Positions 5,099 through 55,776 of a stretch of 64,000 nt of DNA are shown here, piece by piece. Every line of letters starts with the position of its first letter. The stretch's first letter is position 1. The notes under the pieces are model-generated. The model was not told the origin of the DNA and searched no databases. It saw only the letters and a list, made by a program, of their open reading frames with translations. Both the position numbers and the translations under genes were made by a program. The DNA is from Octopus vulgaris (lineage: Eukaryota). Where the stretch lies: contig OX597823.1 of the NCBI GenBank assembly GCA_951406725.2, forward strand, positions 44,330,001 to 44,394,000. The letters run 5' to 3'.

Positions 5099-5722
5099 CA
5101 GCTAAATACTGTATAACATTATTTTTCTACTTTATATGTGAAACAGTTTCATAAATGTCTACAATATTTCGCAGATATTTTCAGTGATAAATGTCAAAAT
5201 TAAGATTGATTTCAAAGAACAGCTTGGACAGATTTTGTAGTGTCATAACATCACTATGATATGAGTTGTATATTTCACACTTGACATGGGATTAAGTGGA
5301 CCAAAATGTATTTATGAATCATTAATATCAGTAAGAGAGTCGTATTAGGGTAAGTCATAGAAAGTAGACCAATGATGGAAAAAGTCAACCCATCAACCCC
5401 TATTATAAGCAATAGTTTGTCTTCATGCAAAAACACTCAACTTTTAACATAACTAGCAAGTTTTTCATTATCTTGTAATGTGTGGTTCAAATCTTCACAT
5501 GAGTTTTAATTTGAAAAAAACTTGTTCCAATATGCTACCTTTTCTAAACACATTACATAGCAAAAAGGATTAAAGTCATGTCTCACAAACACACAGGATT
5601 ATAGGATACAGGCTTAACTATTAGAGTCACTTGTCTACTTTTTTGTGTGTCTCTATCCTCATGAAAATTCTTTTTGTAGTTCATTAGTTGTTTGGATTGG
5701 ATTTTTCATTTATTAAACTAAC

Positions 5723-9434: not shown

Positions 9435-10610
9435 CTGAAATTAGATAAAGAGTGTTTTGTTGATTATCTGACACTGTTGTTAGATGCAAAAATACAACAT
9501 TAGCAGCATTTAAAGTTATTTTTTATTATTTTTTTTTTTGTAATGATTTGAGCGACAAATACCATCCAGAAGATGAATTCAAATGATTTTTCTATCTCCA
9601 GAAATTATATGATCAATAATATTCATCAATAATGATGATGACATGTCTCTCATTTACTTGTTTCAGTCGTTAGACTGTGGCTATGCTGAGGCACTGACTT
9701 GAAAAAAATTTTTTTAGTCAAATGAATTTTTAAGCCTGGTACTTATTCTATTATTCGCTTTTGCTGAACTGCAAAGTTACAGGGACATAAACACTCTAAC
9801 ACCAGTTGTTGAGTGGTAATGTGTGTGTGTGTGGATGGGTGGGGAGCAAGCACAGACATACACGCAAACACATATATAATGGGCTTCTTTCAGTTTCCAT
9901 CTACCAAATCCGCTCACAAGGATTTAGTCGGCTTGAGGCTATAGTTAGAAGACACTTGCCCAAGGTATCATGCAGAGGGACCAAACCTGGAACTATGTGG
10001 TTGGGAAGCAAGATTCTAAACACACAGAAATATCTGTGCCTTAAAAAGTGAGATGCTTACAGCACCTAAGTTTCTCAAGTACTATCTAGGCTTGATGTTA
10101 CTTTACTTCAGAAATTGGACAAGAACCAGTGCATTCAACATATAGCCACAAGCACTTGTTAAAAAATCCCTAAAATTTTGAGTGCAAGAACCATAACTAA
10201 CTGAACATAAAGCAGAATTGTCATATCTACATTATTTCATTCAGCCCAAAACACAAACAAATTCATTTCAGTCAAAGATTATTTCCGTTATATTGAAGGG
10301 CTGCTTGATTAGTATTCAATATGATTATCCAACGACCAAAATGGTTTCCAAGTACCAATACTTCCAGAAGCAAATCAGTGGGATTTCAGTTCACTAAACC
10401 ATAGATGAGTAGCTACAACTTATTGTGGTTAAGAAGCAGGATCACTGGTTAAGTTGAAATATTGACTTCATGTCTTCTTCTAAGCTGGGATTATTCTAGA
10501 TAGAGACACTTTTTAACCATTTCTAAACACTGCATGATAAATAGTGCTCCTTGTGAGTAAAAAAATAATGAATACATACAGAGAAGATAAAAACTTTGAA
10601 ATATACTTAC

Positions 10611-25150: not shown

Positions 25151-25244
25151 TGTGAGGGTGCGCGCGTGTGTGTGTGTGTGTGTGTGCGCGTGTGCGTGAG
25201 TGTGTGACAGGAAAGTATTTTACGACGAATATAAGTAGCAGAAA

Positions 25245-25723
25245 GATAAGACAGTAAGGTGTGATTTGAGGGAGATTTGGCTGCTATTTCTACCATGTCT
25301 AGCTGCCATGTAGGGGTCTCCCTCATAGGCTCATACATACATATATACATAGATAAGACAGTAAGGTGTGATTTGGGGGAAATTTGGCTGCTATTTCTAC
25401 CAGGTCTAGCTGCCATGTAGGGGTCTCCCTCATAGGCTCATACATACATATATACATAGATGAGACAGTAATGTGTGATTTGGGGGAAATTTGGCTGCTA
25501 TTTCTACCATGTCTAGCTGCAATGTAGGGGTCTCCCTCATAGGCTCATACATACATATATACATAGATAAGACAGTAAGGTGTGATTTGGGGGAAATTTG
25601 GCTGCTATTTCTACCAGGTCTAGCTACCATGTAGAGGTCCTCCTCATTGGCTCATATATATATACATACATAAGACAGTAAGGTGTGATTTGAGGGACAT
25701 TTGGCTGCTGTTTCTACCAGGTC
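25245..25723 (+). repeat. 107-bp minisatellite, about 4.5 units (about 2.5 units at 27637-27902)
   Basis: Unit GATAAGACAGTAAGGTGTGATTTG..GGCTCATACATACATATATACATA repeated head to tail. Confidence 0.92.
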
Positions 25724-26089
25724 TGTTAGGCCTTCTCATGTAAACGCAAGCTTTCTCATGCCTTGAACATAAGACCAAAGCAGAGAATGTATTCTTTTAT
25801 TCTTCTGCTTTTTCCAGCCATTGGTCTGTGGCCATGCTGGGGCAATGCCTTGAAGAATTGTAGTTTAATGAATCAACTCCAGTTTTATTTTTGTAAGCAT
25901 TGTACTTATTCTATCTGTTTCCTTTGTCAAACCACTAGGTGACAGGGATGTAAACAAACCAACATTCGTTGTCAAGCAGTGGTGGAGGACAATCACAAGC
26001 ACAGACACGCACACACACACACATACATGCATACACATATACACACATACATACATACATACATATATATATATGTGTGTATATATATA

Positions 26090-27555: not shown

Positions 27556-28688
27556 GGGTGCGTGTGTGTGTGTGTGTGTGCGTGTGCGTGAGTGTGTTAC
27601 AGGAAAGTTTTTTACGACGAATATAAGTAGCAGAAAGATAAGACAGTAAGGTGTGATTTGAGGGAGATTTGGCTGCTATTTCTACCATGTCTAGCTGCCA
27701 TGTAGGGGTCTCCCTCATAGGCTCATACATACATATATACATAGATAAGACAGTAAGGTGTGATTTGGGGGAAATTTGGCTGCTATTTCTACCAGGTCTA
27801 GCTACCATGTAGAGGTCCTCCTCATTGGCTCATATATATATACATACATAAGACAGTAAGGTGTGATTTGAGGGACATTTGGCTGCTGTTTCTACCAGGT
27901 CTGTTAGGCCTTCTCATGTAAACGCAAGCTTTCTCATGCCTTGAACATAAGACCAAAGCAGAGAATGTATTCTTTTATTCTTCTGCTTTTTCCAGCCATT
28001 GGTCTGTGGCCATGCTGGGGCAATGCCTTGAAGAATTGTAGTTTAATGAATCAACTCCAGTTTTATTTTTGTAAGCATTGTACTTATTCTATCTGTTTCC
28101 TTTGTCAAACCACTAGGTGACAGGGATGTAAACAAACCAACATTCGTTGTCAAGCAGTGGTGGAGGACAATCACAAGCACAGACACGCACACACACACAC
28201 ATACATGCATACACATATACACACATACATACATACATACATATATATATATGTGTGTATATATATATTGCAGCGTGGAAGGTGTTTGTAAGCCATTTAA
28301 GAAACACACAAAAAGCGTTACATTCACTTCAACATTTAAATTTAATTTGCCAAAATATTTTCGTCGCTTTGAGACCGCGACCTGTTCACTGACAAAAATA
28401 TCGTGCTAACAGGTCGCGGTCTCAAAGCGACAAAAATATTTTGACAAATTAAATTTAAATGTTGAAGTGAATCTAACGGTTTTTGTGTGTTTCTTAAATG
28501 GCTTATAAACACCTTCAAAGCTGCAACTGTTTTCGTTCCAGCACACGATCTCAGATCAAGTCACTTGCTATGCAAGTACATCTCTGTAACTATTTATATA
28601 TTTATATATATATATATATGTATATTGGTAAAAACAGTAAGATAACAAAAGAAAGAAAGAGACCTCAATATTATGTAAATAGAGGAAA

Positions 28689-31339: not shown

Positions 31340-32700
31340 CACACGTTTCTATATTGAGCAAGATGTGGGGTGGAAACCAAATGATGTTTCTGCAGTGCTT
31401 CCTTCTGTGGCTGTTAGGACCCAGCTAGTGCCTTGTTATAGTAGGGTGTTACTGAGTCAAAAATCTCCTGGCTACAGAAAAGGTTCATGGTCATCTTGCT
31501 GACATCCTTCACCAGGTTTCTGAATACATTGGGTGGGTGGGTGGGTGGGTGGGTGGCAGGAAGCTGTGTTGATATACGTCATCCTCTCATTTGGCTTGCA
31601 GTAGGGGCTGTATGTACCAGAGCTCAAATCAAGCATGACATCTAAGAAGTCCAGAGTGGTGAGATTGGTCTCGATAGTAATTTTCTGTCCCATAGAGCCA
31701 TGGGTGCTAATCAGATCTTTCCTAAGCCTATCTAGAGATGGCCAGGGCATCATCTCTATAGAGGCCAAAGAGGACAGAGGAGAATTTCATCTTTAGGACA
31801 TCAAGGATATACAACCTGATGCGGTCACATATACCAGTGCTGTCATAGGCCCCCATCACTATGTTGAAAGAACCCACGGAGTTGAATTGCTTGACCCAGG
31901 TCTGACCTTTATTGAACAGCATTGTTTTCCTGGCATGCATAATGACATCTGTGTCCCTGTTGTTAATGTCAGTGAAGCCTCTAGCAAAGGAAAGTGTCTT
32001 GACCAGTAACCCTTTTGATACAAAGAGGTGAAAATTGACTGTCGAACTGTGAGCCTTGCTCTGCCTCTCCCCTATGATGTTGCTAGAGCAACATCATAGA
32101 GAGAGGTTGGTGGTTCTCTTTATGTTGTTTTTTGATGTTCCTCAGAATGTGTTTGCTCACCAGACTGATCTCGGATTTGGCTGGGTTCATCAGGTGACAT
32201 TTGGAGCTCAAGGCAATGTTTGGTTTATGGTCTGTGATAGTAATAAAGGCATTCCTTTTAGCTAAAATCTCTACCGTATCTGCTATATCAAAGTTGGCTA
32301 ATTGTTTAGCTTCACTATTGAAGTTGTATGTGTGTGGAGAGGCGCACCTATAGTTTTGTGTAATATTGTTTTCTGGCAGCCTGTCAAAAGTATGGGTGTC
32401 TATCCTATATACGTTTTAGTCTTATCTGAAAGATTAGGGACCTGTCAGAATTTTTTTTTTTTTTTGTAGTCTAATGTCGACACGAAGTTTACATTTGAAA
32501 GAGTAAGAGGACTTAGGGAAGTTTAGCCTAGGAATGATGGTCAGCTAGTCTGCTTTGAAGGGCTCGAGGTCCTTGACCCTGGGTGGGTACGTCGTAGATT
32601 TAATCACGTATGTGTTGTTCTCCGAGGAGGGTGTGGTTAGGTCGTAGTAGAAAGCTTTCCATCGCAATCGCCTTATTAAGTCCACTTTTTGTACAGCTCG
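31340..32700 (-). mobile_element. Decayed Penelope-like element, reverse transcriptase
   Basis: MGAYDSTGICD, GLYRDDALAI, TLDFLDVMLDL, YSPYCKPN, YINTASCHP and IIWFPP across frames. Confidence 0.88.
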
Positions 32701-47125: not shown

Positions 47126-47165
47126 AAAATTAGTGCTTTCATAAATAGTGTACTCATCAGATTTC
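47126..47165 (-). ncRNA. Decayed canonical type-I hammerhead inside a small foldback element (47066-47275)
   Basis: GAAAT-CTGATGA-GTA cactatt TAT-GAA-AGCACT-A-ATTTT; flanking inverted repeat 47066-47105 / 47181-47220. Confidence 0.6.
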
Positions 47166-48681: not shown

Positions 48682-48685
<4 letters not shown>

Positions 48686-49321
48686 CATAAGGGACTAAAG
48701 CCATCTGAATATGGCTAGGGACAGGGCAGGGTGGTGGGGGTGTTACTGTTGCATTTAGCCCCAGGCGAACATCGACGTCACCAGAAAGGCTCGACACCGT
48801 CACGGTGTCCTTATCCTACAAAGGGAGGTAATTCCCCGATGAAGCGGAAACCACACACGGACCATGGTTTCAAGGTGTATTGCCTATCGTCGGCGTGTGG
48901 TAGGCTTCCGCTTCCTCGACGAATTCTCACTCTGCAGGATATTCATATATAGATTTTCAAGCAAAATACATTTGCTGATTTCGAAAAAAATCAGCAAATG
49001 TATTTTGCTTGAAAATCTCTATATGAATATCCTGCAGAGTGAGAATTCGTCGAGGAAGCGGAAGCCTACCACACGCCGACGATAGGCAATACACCTTGAA
49101 ACCATGGTCCGTGTGTGGTTTCCGCTTCATCGGGGAATTACCTCCCTTTGCAGGATAAGGACACCGTGACGGTGTCGAGCCTTTCTGGTGACGTCGATGT
49201 TCGCCTGGGGCTAAATGCAACAGTAACACCCCCACCACCCTGCCCTGTCCCTAGCCATATTCAGATGGCTTTAGTCCCTTATGTTATCGAGCAGTTACTG
49301 TCTATATCTCTTTTAGAGAAT

Positions 49322-49325
<4 letters not shown>
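48682..49325. mobile_element. 606-bp near-perfect palindrome with ~37-nt tail; probable inverted Penelope pLTR pair
   Basis: Arms 48682-48981 and 48988-49287, 6-nt loop, two mismatches seen by eye; (TA)n on both sides. Confidence 0.9.
49070..49115 (+). ncRNA. Variant type-I hammerhead with CCGACGA core (mirror copy 48854-48899 on -)
   Basis: CACACG-CCGACGA-TAGG caataca CCTT-GAA-ACCATGGT-C-CGTGTG; GUC site after 49109. Confidence 0.72.
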
Positions 49326-49358
<33 letters not shown>

Positions 49359-49548
49359 CAATAGTCTTCCTATTTACCTAAAACTCTATTCTATTATTCT
49401 ATTTTTTCATTTATCTACTTTATCACTGATTCTTTTGACCACTCCCCTAAGAAAGACAGTTTGTGCCCTGCCTACCCCAAAAAGTCCTCCACCACCACCC
49501 CATCAAATCTGCCTAAATGTATAAATGCCAAAACTATTCTTGACGCCA

Positions 49549-49599
49549 AGCTTCCTGATGATTTCATTTGAATGAAACAGTTCTAGTCCTGTAGAAGCT
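49549..49599 (+). ncRNA. Type-I hammerhead ribozyme, canonical core
   Basis: AGCTTC-CTGATGA-TTTC attt GAAT-GAA-ACAG ttctagtc CTGT-A-GAAGCT; GUA site after 49593. Confidence 0.8.
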
Positions 49600-49612
49600 C
49601 CTTCTATAAAAT

Positions 49613-49647
<35 letters not shown>

Positions 49648-49991
49648 AGTGTAGGTGGTATACGAGTGGGTATATATTTATAAAGAAGTTTGAAAACACC
49701 ACTATATAAGATAAATTTTAATTTTCTTAGAAATTTTACATGTTTCGGTTCTGCTACTGCTATTTCAGCCACTGGTCATTTCCCCCAACTTTAGTCAACA
49801 CATGAGATAGCTATTATGCTTCCTCCTCACAAAAACCACTACGTGGATTCTGTTGAGACTAGTAAGAAACAATTATGAACTTTTTTTTATTACACTTAAC
49901 TTTTTAAAATATTTTTGAAAAGGTTCGTTTTTTCAAGAAGAATTAAAATTTATCTTATATAGTGGCGTTTTCAAACTTCTTTTTATTAATA

Positions 49992-50060
<69 letters not shown>

Positions 50061-50129
50061 TTTGATTTGAAAAATAACAGGATTGACAATGATAATAGGA
50101 ATAGAACGGAATTTCCAAATGAGAAAAAC

Positions 50130-51590
50130 AATTATAACCTAAAAACATACAGAAATCCACCGTTTAACTCGGCTCTCGCGAACTTTTAAAAAGATTCTAT
50201 GAACATGGCTAAACAAATAAAAGTTTTCCAGATACACAAATCCCTTTCAGAAAATCATCTCCAGATTTGCACATCCTATCTGATAAGACCGGAAATATTT
50301 ATACTGTACCGCCGAGCCTTTATAATGACTTAATCTTGAAAGAGCTTAATTTTCTGGATATAAATGTGTAAACAAGAATGTTTTGGATGATAATAATATT
50401 CATCTGGATATCAGCTCTAGTTTGGGCTTGCTGGATAGAACCCAACCTTATGCTCCCAAAACTCCCCATTGTTTTTTGAAGGACGATAAGCCTGATTTTT
50501 TTTATCAAATCCTTCGATTAGATTAATCTGCCCAACCAAGTCCGATTTGGTCAGAATCAGTAAGTATATTATTGATCGGATTATTTCCATCGTTAGTTTC
50601 AGTTTCCCCTATGGAACTTTACCGGGATGTCATTTTATGGTTTGACTCTCTTACTGATAAGCCTAATTTATACTTTATCCAATTCGATATTTCGAATTAT
50701 TACAACTCCACTTCCCCTATATTGCTAAATAAGGCTTTGATTTTCGCTCAGAAATTTGCAAATATCCATAGTTCGGATATTGATGTCATTTTAGCGGCAA
50801 GGGAGACCCGCATTTCCTTCAACGAGCGTAATTGGAGGAGGGCTGATTCCACCAATTTCTTTGATACTATGGGGTCCTCAGATTCAACACAGGTGACCGA
50901 TTTAGTGGGCCTATATCTCCTTTCGCAGATTAGGGATAGTTTTCCTCTCCTTACCGGGGAATTATATAGGGACGATGCACTTCTAGCTGCACGTGGCCAG
51001 TCTAAAACTGCGTTGAATAGACTGAAGAACGCTTTGAGAAGTTTCTTAAAAGATTTTTTAGAATCTTAACATTATTTTTGATGTTAACTCCAGAGTGGTG
51101 AATTTCTTGGATGTGACTTTGAATTTGGATACTGGTTTATACTACCCATTTCGTAAGCCAAATAAATCCATTTCATATATCAATGTCTCCTCAAATCATC
51201 TGAAATCTACTATTGATAGCATCATTACTGCCATTTCGATCAGAATCTCCAATTTGTCCGCAAACGAAGAGATTTTTTATCAACATGCACAAGTATATAA
51301 CAACGCTCTAAAGTTGAGCGGCTTCAAAACTAAAATCTCACATATACCTAACACGAGACTTAAGAACAAGCTGGCTGGTCTAGCACTTGACCATGTCATA
51401 GAAAGTCTTGAGAAACGCAATGCATTAATTGATTACTACAAATGTAGGCCATCCGCTAGATACTTATATAGAGATTTTAGGAATAGATACTGGAAGCGAA
51501 ATAGTAGTCGTGAGGAGATAAGAAAGACTAAGAGTTTACGTTCAAGAATACAGGAAGTTATCTGGTTTGCTCCCCACCTTTTCCCTTAGA
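50130..51590 (+). mobile_element. Decayed Penelope-like element, reverse transcriptase
   Basis: ORFs 50572..51069 and 51095..51589: FIQFDISNYY, MGSSDSTQVTDLVGLYLL, LYRDDALL, VNFLDVTLNL, YPFRKPN, SSNH; SDKTGNIY upstream. Confidence 0.92.
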
Positions 51591-51950
51591 GTAAGAAATC
51601 TGGACAAGACAAAAAGCAAATGGAAACAGAAAAGAAGTCCTCAAATGTGCCACCCTGTACAAACCTTTTTTTCCTATACGACATAAAAATTAAACGAATT
51701 AAAAGAAAAGCAAGATTTTAATAAAGGCTAATTTCATCAGTGTATTTTTGATGACATAATTCCTCACAAAACTGAATTTTACAATTTCTTGTATTCCGCA
51801 CAAAATAAAAAGCAAAAGGAAACAAATATTGCATCTTAAGCAATGTACACAAATATGCTATGTTAATTTGTTCAGGGCCACTGAATAAATTTGAAATTTG
51901 CTTGCCCCAGTTGTTGTCATTGTAGGACACATTTTGCATGCATGCACGTT

Positions 51951-52013
<63 letters not shown>

Positions 52014-52340
52014 ACACTCACATACACGCACACGGGACTAAACCGACTTTATCAATTTACTTACATTACATATATAAGACCTTTTAACACGCAGATGTCC
52101 AATTTCGTTCAAATTCATACATGGTTACTACCATTACAAAGACAGTTTGTAAAAAGCTTTGTAGGAAAAGCATCCATAGCTTTGGAAAACATTCATTGAA
52201 TATCTGTCCAAAAAATGAAAAAAAAATTTTCAGTCTTTGTTTTCTCTTTATATGCATAATATGTATGCATATTTTGTGTGTCTAACCCAAGAGGTTTTAT
52301 TTGTTTATTTGTATCATTATCTCTTGTTCTCTCCCCACCA

Positions 52341-52373
<33 letters not shown>

Positions 52374-52806
52374 TTATGGATCAAAACAGTTTGATTCAAA
52401 CTCCTTGGTACTTCGAGTTTCAAAGCATGATGGTAATCTTTAGCCGTTGGAAATATGAATGAGAGCTCAGTTGGAGAAAGTCAGTGGTTATTACCGGACG
52501 GTGGCCAGCAACTAACTAGTCGAGAAAGCTCTGCGTGCTTTATCTTCGATTCTATGGCAACAGTCCGGATACTTATTGATCACACCTCATATGTGTGTGT
52601 ATGTGCTTATGCATCTGTGTGTGTGCCTGTATTAATGCGAGTTCATATATGTGAGCATAGGTGTACATGCGCACATACACACACACACACACGCGCACAC
52701 GGACACACACAAGTATATATGAGTGTATACGTGTGTGCGCGCGCGTATCCGCGCATATATACATATGTATATATATACATATATGTATGTATATATATTT
52801 TATATA

Positions 52807-53205
52807 TCTTTATATATAAAAGAGAGGTTGTGTGCTGTCTGTCTCCTACGATTTAGATTCCTAACTACTCCCACATTTTGCGGTGCAGTTTAGCCAAAAC
52901 CGGGTATCTTATAGTCGTGATTCATATCGAGCCCTTCTGGATATTAGCGCGCGTCTACGATGAGTCTACGATTTAAAAAAAAATTTACCATCAATTTTCC
53001 CCATTTTTAATGCATTTTTGGCATATATAAAGGGAAGTAACTCTCTAAAAATTTATTATTAAATCTCAGAACGTAAAAAGCTACAGTAACACCACCCCCC
53101 TTTGTGGTTAGCCATATTGAGATGGCTATTATACTTTACATCTCTAAAAATGCTTATATAGTTATTTCCCTTACAAACCCGAGCAACGCCGGGCGATACT
53201 ACTAG
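52807..53205 (+). mobile_element. Non-autonomous Helitron (same family)
   Basis: A|TCTTTATATATAAAA ... CCCGAGCAACGCCGGGCGATACTACTAG|T inside a TA-rich tract. Confidence 0.88.
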
Positions 53206-53649
53206 TATATATATATATATATATATATACATATATATATACATACATACACACATAAACACACACACGAATATATATGCGTACGTGTGTATGCATACTA
53301 GTATGTATATATGTGTGCATGCATACGGTGTGCGGATGTACACGCACACGTATGTATATGTGCTGGTGTGTGCATTTGCATCCATGCGTGTGTGTGCATG
53401 TACACATAGGCGTACACACATACATGCATATATACATATATATACATACACACTCATACACACACATACACACACACACGCATATATATATATATATATA
53501 TATACATAGATATATACATATACATACAAACATATATACACATAATATACACACACACACTTACATACGCACCCACACACTCAGGGTACCCATCCACTCG
53601 TGCGCGCATGTATATATACACGTGTCGTTATGTACAAGGGGTGAGACTA

Positions 53650-55310
53650 TGCGGGTGGACAGGCATGAACAAGCGTTAGAGATTGGTGATTGTTGGTCCT
53701 GCACATGGGAGGTGGGGGGGTAGTTGGTGCCGGTGACCTTGGTGCAGGCGGTACAGGGGAACACCTGGTACTAAGGCGGTATATCCAGGTTGTCGGTGGC
53801 CAGTGGCTTGAAATTTATTAGAAAAGCATACTTCTAGTGACAGAAATAGGATAGATCGTATTTCTTGTTGATACTGCGGGTTGATGGAGGATGTGTAGTT
53901 TTTCGCGGAAGCAGAGCTGGAAATTGGGGGTGCCAGGTAAATATGGTGGAGCCATGTCGACGATAGTCTACCTGATGCTGGGTGTTTCCTCTCGGAGGTC
54001 GTGAAGTCTCCAGAGAAAGCACGACAGGGCAGTAGACTTTTCTCTATCCCTGGATCTGAGTGAATGCATGTGTTAGGAGTATCTTCCCTTGAAGTCATTG
54101 GCTGTCATACCCGTATAGTGCCTAGTGATACCATCGGATGGTGTGAGGGTGGCCTTGGGCAGGATCCTCCTAAGAGAAGGTGGTGGGGTTTCGGAAGTTG
54201 CCGGTTAGGGTTGGGGGTTGTGTGTGTGTCTGTTGATTGTGCGATGCTAGATGCGATGTTGTCTAAGTGGGAGTGGCTCACCTTGACATTATGGGGGTTG
54301 AAGAGTTTGTAAGACATATGGCCTCTGGGGAATGTTTCTTAATTAACGACAGGAAGCCCCTAGCTACGTTGGTAGAAACTTCTAGGTTAAATAGGGGTGG
54401 GGGTTAAACCAAATAATTTTACTTTTCTTAATCCTAATTCTCTTGGGGTGAGGTGAGGGGGTTTGGAGTTCGTCCACATACGTGAGCTTGTCAGAAAGAC
54501 TGCTCCTAGCCAAAGCATTAAAAATCTCCCTGTTGGCTGAGAATGTAGATACCATTTTGTTAATGTCTGAAAACAGGTTTCTAATTACAGCGGGGATGGG
54601 GTGGTTTGAGTTCTTGTGGATGTATATCGTTTCCTCCTTAGCCTTCCTATACGGGTAGTACTTGCCCGTGTTCAGGTATCAGGTTACGTTCAAGAAATCG
54701 ACCGTAGTCAGGTTGGTTGTAACTGTTATGGACAGGCCGAGCTCTTTGAATATTTTTAACAAGCCCTTCTTGAACCTGTTCATGGCGTGGCCGTTCAGCT
54801 GACTTGAGATTGCCAGGCCGCCATCCCTTTAGAGGGCCGACCTAGGTGGATGGGTTTCCCTTGTTGGTATCCAAAATGTATAACTCGACGGGGTCGGCGA
54901 TTTCAGCTCCGTCAAAGTTCCCCATAGAGACATCGAGCAGTAGATCGCCTTCTTTCTCCACCCAAAAGGAATCGTCGTGGACTTTCTGGCATTCATGATG
55001 ATTCTGATGTCAAGGTCACATGCTGGTAAGTTGCTCGGCAAAAGTTAGGGCCTTCGGTGGGACGGACTTAAATATGGAAGGGTAGAAGTCAACAATGTTC
55101 AACTGGGTGAATTTGCATGCTGATTTATTCCCGATATGCGGAACCAGTCGATCACAGCTGCACTGGAGTTCCATTGAGTCAACCCTGTAGTCCTTCTGAT
55201 GTCGGAGTTGATAGCATCGAGAATATGTTGCTAACGATATCTATTTCGCTTTTAAATGGATTGATCAGCTTGCATTTGGAATTGGAGAGGAAATTAGGCT
55301 TATGGTCCAT
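53650..55310 (-). mobile_element. Decayed Penelope-like element: RT plus GIY-YIG endonuclease remnant
   Basis: KLINPFKSEI, TVDFLNVT, YYPYRK, YIHKNSNHP, KIIWFNP and LFNPHNVKVSHS; endonuclease-like HYTGMTANDFKGRYS*HMHSFR near 54060-54120. Confidence 0.88.
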
Positions 55311-55314
55311 ATAA

Positions 55315-55356
<42 letters not shown>

Positions 55357-55484
55357 ACACACACACGCACACAATAAATATATTTTAAAAATTAAGGATA
55401 AAATCTACTTTAGATTTCATCAGGTAGTTAGCGTGGCGTTTTCTTCTGGCGCGTAGGCGACTTGTATACGTACTCGTTTGCCCT

Positions 55485-55547
<63 letters not shown>

Positions 55548-55549
<2 letters not shown>

Positions 55550-55771
55550 GGAGTAAACACATAAATGTGAAACAAGGTGAAAAAAAGAGTACTCACATAC
55601 CAGGGGTAGAGTAATATGCTTTATTTCAAAGCAGCAGAAATTCAACAAAACCTGTTACTCTGAGTTTCACGTTCCCGTTCGTCGGACAGTTTTTGCTAAA
55701 AACTGTCCGACGAACGGGAACGTGAAACTCAGAGTAACAGGTTTGTTGAATTTCTGCTGCTTTGAAATAAA

Positions 55772-55776
<5 letters not shown>
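55548..55776. mobile_element. Foldback element (~80-bp arms, 3-nt loop, ~67-nt tail) in (TA)n
   Basis: 55615-55694 is the reverse complement of 55698-55776. Confidence 0.88.
55703..55740 (+). ncRNA. Minimal variant type-I hammerhead with CCGACGA core (mirror copy 55652-55689 on -)
   Basis: CTGT-CCGACGA-ACG ggaa CGT-GAA-ACTCAGAGT-A-ACAG; GUA site after 55736. Confidence 0.72.

Follow-up and report, generated by a model that had tools for sequence, protein, structure and literature searches.

We examined a 64,000-nucleotide window of the Octopus vulgaris genome (assembly GCA_951406725.2, contig OX597823.1, positions 44,330,001 to 44,394,000 of the forward strand; coordinates below are window positions). 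The window contains two insertions, each an inverted repeat flanked by (TA)n tracts and each carrying a hammerhead ribozyme motif with the core CCGACGA (Table 1). Both motifs have three stems at the junction, an open-ended stem I, and an NUH cleavage site, the layout of type I hammerheads. Motif 1 has a 6-bp stem I (CACACG/CGUGUG), a U·U mismatch followed by a 3-bp stem II and GAAA, a stem III that is a perfect 8-nucleotide palindrome (ACCAUGGU), and a GUC site with predicted cleavage after 49109. Motif 2 has a 4-bp stem I (CUGU/ACAG), a stem II of A-U, C-G, and G-C closed by a GGAA loop and followed by GAAA, a near-palindromic stem III with a single unpaired center base (ACUC-A-GAGU), and a GUA site with predicted cleavage after 55736. 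Compared with the consensus (C3 U4 G5 A6 N7 G8 A9, G12 A13 A14, and A15.1-U16.1), only position 4 deviates in either motif, with C replacing U (C4 and U4 below). By sequence, both are thus core variants and non-canonical members of the type I class.

A first-pass annotation of the window had described two such motifs with GAAA, a GUH site, and a self-complementary stem III in unrelated elements. All of this was present, with the palindrome of motif 2 near-perfect, and blastn detected no homology between the elements outside the core (best E 0.19). The annotation also stressed that both motifs lack the usual G10.1-C11.1 pair. The U·U and A-U it reported are there, but they are not special, as U10.1·U11.1 is described as a natural and the best-tolerated mismatch (PMC3088659) and, by our own count, occurs in 14 of the 26 published hammerheads of Hydra-clade Penelope-like elements (PLEs; Craig et al. 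2021, PMC8557442 File S2), where G-C occurs in seven.

Using a hammerhead descriptor in which position 4 was free, we recovered seven motifs from the window. Four were CCGACGA, since motifs 1 and 2 are each mirrored on the minus strand of their inverted-repeat insertion; the arms of the first insertion, 48682-48981 and 48988-49287, differ at two of 300 positions. The other three were CUGAUGA motifs with cores at 49555 (+), 47160 (-), and 2706 (+), the latter two weaker (spanning 47131-47160 and 2706-2740). Applied to 30 dinucleotide-shuffled versions of the window, the descriptor gave no C4 and no U4 motif, and 0.03 G4 and 0.03 A4 motifs per shuffle. An Rfam scan of the window returned no hammerhead family among the matches listed (150 of 171). 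As the canonical 49555 motif was likewise unmatched among them, Rfam is uninformative for the C4 motifs. Copies related to the canonical hammerhead occur at other loci of the genome. Both the mirror copies and the 49555 motif had escaped the first-pass annotation.

Table 1. Hammerhead motifs and the insertions that carry them in the octopus window
Feature	Position	Strand	Details
Family 1 (retrozyme-type) inverted arm	48682..48987	-	5'-truncated; end at monomer position 178 abuts (TA)n
Mirror copy of motif 1	48854..48899	-	core CCGACGA starts at 48893
Family 1 forward arm	48988..49327	+	monomer 239-360 then 1-218, with ~40-nucleotide extra tail; followed by (TA)n
Hammerhead motif 1	49070..49115	+	type I; C4 core at 49076-49082; palindromic stem III
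Canonical hammerhead of another family	49549..49599	+	type I; CUGAUGA; long stem III, short tail, (TA)n
Family 2 (Hydra-type PLE 3' end) inverted arm	55548..55693	-	~70-nucleotide tail; end abuts (TA)n
Mirror copy of motif 2	55652..55689	-	core starts at 55685
Family 2 forward arm	55696..55772	+	ends 36 nucleotides past predicted cut; followed by (TA)n
Hammerhead motif 2	55703..55740	+	type I; C4 core at 55707-55713

When the right arm of the first insertion was used as a query, the search returned 1025 candidates, of which 40 were scored; full-length matches lay at intervals of 360 bases and mostly had 97-100% identity. In 30 fetched loci of this family (family 1), all 59 distinct motifs carried C4. 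Since the query was itself a C4 copy, we offset this seeding by counting exact patterns over the genome (2.8 Gb, 227 contigs), which gave 1225 C4 copies and no U4 copy. Variants at G5 numbered three genome-wide (two A5 and one U5) against the 1225 intact cores. Selection against U4 was considered and rejected, as zero U4 against two A5 copies is no deficit. Position 7, the free position of the core, is C or U, each in large subfamilies, and stem II A-U is replaced by G·U in 5 of the 59 copies, so that subfamilies differ at both sites.

Family 1 occurs at many loci as 360-nucleotide head-to-tail units, each with one type I hammerhead, a length within the retrozyme range of 150-450 nucleotides. 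Mapping 20 loci (numbered here with the prefix L) onto the monomer revealed variable 5' truncation, mostly an inverted arm, (TA)n on the flanks, and 3' ends fixed at two places, monomer positions 178 and 218-222. By sequence, the paired ends are the tail signature of PLEs, which Frangieh et al. (PMC11167929) traced to two internal priming sites. Arrays reach seven full units (L008) and run through the cleavage site. The monomer is predicted to fold into a long self-paired structure (-128 kcal/mol, z -5.6), and 48682-49327 contains no open reading frame (ORF) of 100 amino acids except a low-complexity overlap. A non-coding, self-paired, tandem monomer fits the animal retrozymes that lack long terminal repeats (non-LTR retrozymes). 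An older sister family, about 70% identical to family 1 (3193 candidates, 40 scored, 25 loci fetched, L233-L257), has U4 in all 26 of its motifs, with the neighboring CpG intact in 15. In family 1, C4 is therefore likely to be derived. The sister family carries a C·A mismatch at 10.1/11.1 and constitutes a natural U4 control for family 1.

Motif 2 recurs in dispersed copies, either 36 or about 108 bases upstream of a (TA)n junction (family 2). Upstream of it are broken ORF copies (L258-L264) with RWK and DKT motifs, a reverse transcriptase core, a CxCx5C linker, and a C-terminal endonuclease that has CxxC and CxH motifs and is without CCHH, the features given as diagnostic of the Hydra clade (PMC8557442). 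The protein motifs of these broken copies fit assignment of family 2 to the Hydra-clade PLEs; assignment to Neptune or Naiad was rejected on the same motifs. Family 2 copies also show (TA)n targets, 5' truncation, an inverted copy, a tail, and a partial tandem, in which a hammerhead lies upstream of a truncated ORF (L261).

Exact patterns of family 2 numbered 2099 with C4-G5, 253 with U4-G5, and 203 with C4-A5. The C4-A5 class is a matched control for CpG decay, as U4 and A5 are the two decay outcomes of one CpG. U at position 7 was found in 29 of the first 100 U4 rows and 3 of the first 100 C4 rows (hand count). Because U4 copies are nearly as few as the A5 control and are richer in decay of the neighboring CpG, they are, on these counts, mostly decayed C4 copies. 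Among 70 distinct copies, a set that excludes 12 loci fetched by their U4 pattern, each CpG position differs in 5-11 copies, and position 4 differs most often (10 U, 1 A). In stem III, 21 copies differ at the unpaired center, and the eight paired positions of the stem differ in 13 of 560 cells. Other core positions outside the CpG sites are nearly fixed, while the free position varies. Selection acting on the palindromic stem of master copies would fit this distribution.

The genome-wide comparison of C4 and U4 that the first-pass annotation had proposed was made on 120 evenly spaced 10-kb stretches, with the reversed sequences as a control. The descriptor matched 30 motifs: 13 with C3-C4, 10 with C3-U4, and seven with U3-A8. 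The reversed sequences gave two matches, both U3 and neither C3. C4 was therefore present in 13 of the 23 matches with C3-G8. Seven of the 13 C4 matches fall into one further family (family 3), whose hammerhead is of the minimal form and has a 4-nucleotide palindrome; exact genome-wide counts for it were 7812 C4 and 2854 U4. U at position 7 was rare in both lists (2-3 cases among the first 100 rows of either), and for this reason we regard family 3 U4, from its sequence pattern, as a co-amplified subfamily rather than a product of decay. The flanks of its C4 copies diverge to 70-75% identity.

At one locus, L269, an ORF (~420-2360, +) with DKG, a Cx4CxxC linker, and CCHH-type endonuclease cysteines is followed by ~2.9 kb of CA-rich 3' sequence that continues, uninterrupted by (TA)n, to a family 3 hammerhead at 5249. 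A reverse transcriptase with DKG, a Cx2-5CxxC linker, and, at the C terminus, a GIY-YIG domain with internal cysteines define the Neptune type, to which this single locus would assign family 3; Nematis is a possible alternative. The L269 ORF is apparently little damaged. An anchor search of the census sample that left the core unconstrained recovered 23 rows from the family 3 group. The core was CUGUNGA, with A6 replaced by U, in 12 of them; rows of this kind have all four bases at position 7 (for example L115, L138, L157, and L201, and also L039 and L055). By this sample, the A6U core may be as frequent as U4C. A further set of loci (L150 on both strands, L103, L131, L128, and L122) contains a fourth C4 motif, CCGAAGA with an AGUACU palindrome, which has a U4 relative elsewhere, and several U3-A8 cores, one of which is U3-C4-A8.

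C4 is thus the majority base in three families, in more than 11,000 exact-pattern copies. Judged from these counts, it is the family state of families 1 and 2 and the majority state of family 3, and is not a product of decay. The suggestion in the first-pass annotation that C4 is a recurrent natural variant therefore stands, and neither of the two families in which it was proposed has a U4 consensus. Its argument from intact CpGs fared less well. The family counts do speak against decay, but the CpGs of family 1 mainly reflect youth, as three G5 variants among 1225 copies indicate. Since the family 1 monomer has no detectable homology to families 2 and 3 outside the core, and since families 2 and 3 differ in their protein motifs, C4 likely had separate origins in three or more lineages. 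As to polarity, U4 is present in all 26 motifs of the sister family and all 26 published Hydra-clade rows, and both states occur in family 3. From the variation within families, it is likely that selection has continued to act on the hammerhead fold. C4 itself is not required, and nothing indicates selection for slow cutting.

We compared predicted folds using an energy model without scoring of core contacts. For single motifs, the hammerhead fold is at -4.4 kcal/mol compared with -19.2 for the minimum-energy fold (motif 1) and at -2.6 compared with -7.1 (motif 2). In double hammerheads of motif 1 the gap per ribozyme narrows (-25.8 versus -41.2 for two), and the values for a natural tandem are -163 and -175. 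In family 2, stem II has a predicted probability of 0.0 with C4 and 0.85 with U4; C4 is predicted to favor a competing fold. A general model in which C4 stabilizes a competing fold was rejected, as the effect is confined to family 2 and is absent in families 1 and 3. That C4 cleavage is slower than U4 cleavage is plausible by analogy, as U4C considerably lowered activity in vitro in a viroid hammerhead while allowing infectivity (PMC3088659). Minimal PLE hammerheads are described as cutting weakly, as dimers (PMC4209133). According to PMC11167929, the hammerhead of an anole PLE cuts only with the PLE protein, and its catalytic mutants insert normally in vitro.

Families 1 and 2 share (TA)n insertion, inverted 5'-truncated arms, two fixed 3' ends, and insertions that continue through the cleavage site. 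We propose the following route by which U4C may have become a family state in hammerheads of Penelope-dependent retroelements. RNA of C4 elements would be transcribed, and single motifs would take inactive shapes, with cutting mainly in double hammerheads paired through their palindromes and possibly aided by the PLE protein. Family 1 RNA would release a 360-nucleotide monomer or circle, which the PLE enzyme would copy by internal priming into multimers. If the enzyme copies uncut RNA too, a slower core would cost little, and master lineages could therefore drift to C4, or in other families to U6 or U3-A8, while keeping their mobility. On balance, we favor the reading that C4 is a tolerated, slower core of RNAs that do not depend on rapid cleavage for their mobility. 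A stronger version, which we consider speculative and rather unlikely, is that Penelope-dependent RNAs in this lineage have repeatedly and convergently replaced the uridine of the U-turn, or elsewhere A6, because their ribozymes work inside a PLE ribonucleoprotein, with protein or dimer contacts taking over the role of U4 and a slower core tuning how RNA is divided among cut, circular, and uncut templates. Were it true, about half of the hammerheads in genomes of this kind would escape a descriptor that requires CUGANGA.

Several points weigh against a tolerated, slower C4 core. When a type III hammerhead was subjected to deep mutational scanning, activity was low in each of the single mutants of its CUGA turn (PMC9901934), and the frequent A6U cores of related elements, 12 of 23 rows in the census, could imply that these elements can do without catalysis altogether. 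As the descriptor behind the published Hydra rows requires CUGA, those rows cannot show that C4 is absent elsewhere (PMC8557442). The tie between family 3 and a Neptune-type ORF is a single locus. Finally, family 2 U4 copies slightly exceed the A5 control (253 versus 203, p 0.02), and there may be a minor U4 sublineage.

The first two of these points bear as well on the alternative that C4 motifs no longer cut and are kept as folded RNA elements, for example as dimerization or protein-binding sites, while their catalytic letters drift. The normal insertion of PLE catalytic mutants in vitro, the commonness of other odd cores in the genome, and monomer hammerhead folds that lie far above the minimum-energy folds are all in line with it. 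We nonetheless consider it unlikely. U4C is active enough for a viroid, and a drifting core is hard to reconcile with family 2, where core positions outside the CpG sites are nearly fixed while the free position varies, or with family 1 and the A6U group, where variation falls on position 7, the sole free position of the core. The exact 360-nucleotide units of family 1 also fit a monomer that was cut and ligated.

A further possibility is that C4 was positively selected as a brake, with slow cutting leaving uncut or circular templates for run-through copying and thereby driving the three expansions. The same change in three lineages, C4 in the youngest retrozyme family when the older sister has U4, arrays that continue through the cleavage site for up to seven units, and the competing fold predicted for family 2 C4 would all be expected of a brake. 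However, U4 elements, both the 49555 family and the sister family, have the same run-through layout, C4 and U4 were co-amplified in family 3 with no sign that U4 is decay, the absence of U4 from family 1 is no deficit next to two A5 copies and one U5 copy, and the competing-fold effect is absent in families 1 and 3. We therefore judge a selected brake improbable. The proposal of the first-pass annotation, that C4 cuts slowly so that RNA is copied through the ribozyme, is not supported as a property specific to C4, because U4 elements share the layout and a circular template that was cut and ligated would give the same DNA.

Still less probable, and in our view very unlikely, is that C4 is changed to U4 in RNA by C-to-U editing that switches the ribozyme on. 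The change would be exactly a deamination, and any read with U4 would be informative, given that U4 is missing from the genomic copies of family 1. We compared the monomer with contigs of four sequencing runs, which were guessed to be RNA and none of which is recorded as RNA. Three gave a closed 360-nucleotide loop, from closed-loop contigs of 390 nucleotides, and full-length contigs of these runs keep C4, although contigs drop rare variants. One of the three runs carries another organism label, and a closed loop fits tandem DNA or a circle alike, so that what the contigs establish is the presence of the monomer. The single contig with T at position 4 differs at 26 other sites and is a diverged relative. 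Moreover, an edited template would return as U4 DNA, and no U4 copy is found among exact family 1 patterns. The reading of C4 as decay after insertion or chance resemblance is refuted by the family counts, with thousands of identical copies, decayed family 2 copies that are U4, and no such motif in shuffled or reversed controls, and merits almost no credence.

Elsewhere in the window, broken Hydra-like PLE reverse transcriptase remnants lie at 50400-51589 (+), which contains a DKT motif, 53700-55300 (-), and 31472-32415 (-); Pfam returned no relevant family for five PLE remnants of the window. Tandem repeats of 107 bp at 25244-25724 and 27638-27902 lie inside a duplicated block (~25-26.2 kb and 27.3-28.4 kb). 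A weak match to 5S ribosomal RNA at 10054-10153 (-), just over the Rfam gathering score, is probably part of a short interspersed nuclear element.

These findings bear on the role of hammerheads in PLEs, for which one in vitro study reported cutting to be both dispensable for insertion and dependent on protein (PMC11167929). Natural matched pairs, namely C4 family 1 and its U4 sister and the C4 and U4 subfamilies of family 3, make the role of cutting testable without engineered cores. As 13 of 23 C3-G8 census matches have C4, descriptors that demand CUGANGA undercount hammerheads in the octopus genome. The ingredients described here are each known: retrozymes, Hydra and Neptune PLE hammerheads, the U4C change, U·U at 10.1/11.1, and U3-A8 at the family level. 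The new element is the repeated, family-wide fixation of C4. The first-pass annotation had left open whether the variant is catalogued. U4C is, for a viroid, and that mention was all our literature search found: no C4 majority state was reported in PLE or retrozyme families, although Lunse et al., the likeliest place, and several supplements were outside its reach. The accessible portions of PMC3376415, PMC2553840, and PMC6155905 contain nothing on U4C.

Family 1 resembles the animal non-LTR retrozymes (Cervera and de la Pena 2020, PMC7229834; Li, Clavereau and Pollet 2026, 10.64898/2026.07.22.740005) in its non-coding tandem unit, one type I hammerhead per unit, self-paired monomer, and PLE-type insertion signature. 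It differs in its C4 core, and octopus goes unmentioned in the accessible portions of both reports. They demonstrate linear and circular RNA, whereas family 1 is known from DNA and contigs. Family 2 shares with the Hydra-clade PLEs of Craig et al. (PMC8557442) RWK, DKT, CxCx5C, the lack of CCHH, CxxC and CxH around E and N, (TA)n targets, and a hammerhead near the 3' end, and the Hydra-2_aMil row agrees with it in stem I, stem III, and the GUA site. In the comparison with published PLE hammerheads that the first-pass annotation called for, U4 is present in all 26 Hydra-clade rows of File S2, including one octopus family, and C4 in none, as the CUGA-demanding descriptor entails, while family 2 has C4 and A10.1-U11.1.

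The minimal metazoan PLE hammerheads of Cervera and de la Pena (2014, PMC4209133) have in common with the octopus motifs a palindromic stem III, predicted activity as dimers, and pairs of motifs on opposite strands, and family 3 is of this minimal form. That report describes a family-level core variant, U3-A8 in Schistosoma, which is compensatory and, in its accessible portion, the sole core variant; U4C has no evident partner change. The closest precedent for the change itself is the viroid U4C variant (Ambros and Flores 1998, as cited in PMC3088659), the same single natural core change, with reduced activity in vitro and viability in vivo. In the viroid, a plant RNA replicon, U4C is a rare variant, whereas here C4 is the majority state in three DNA-integrated families.

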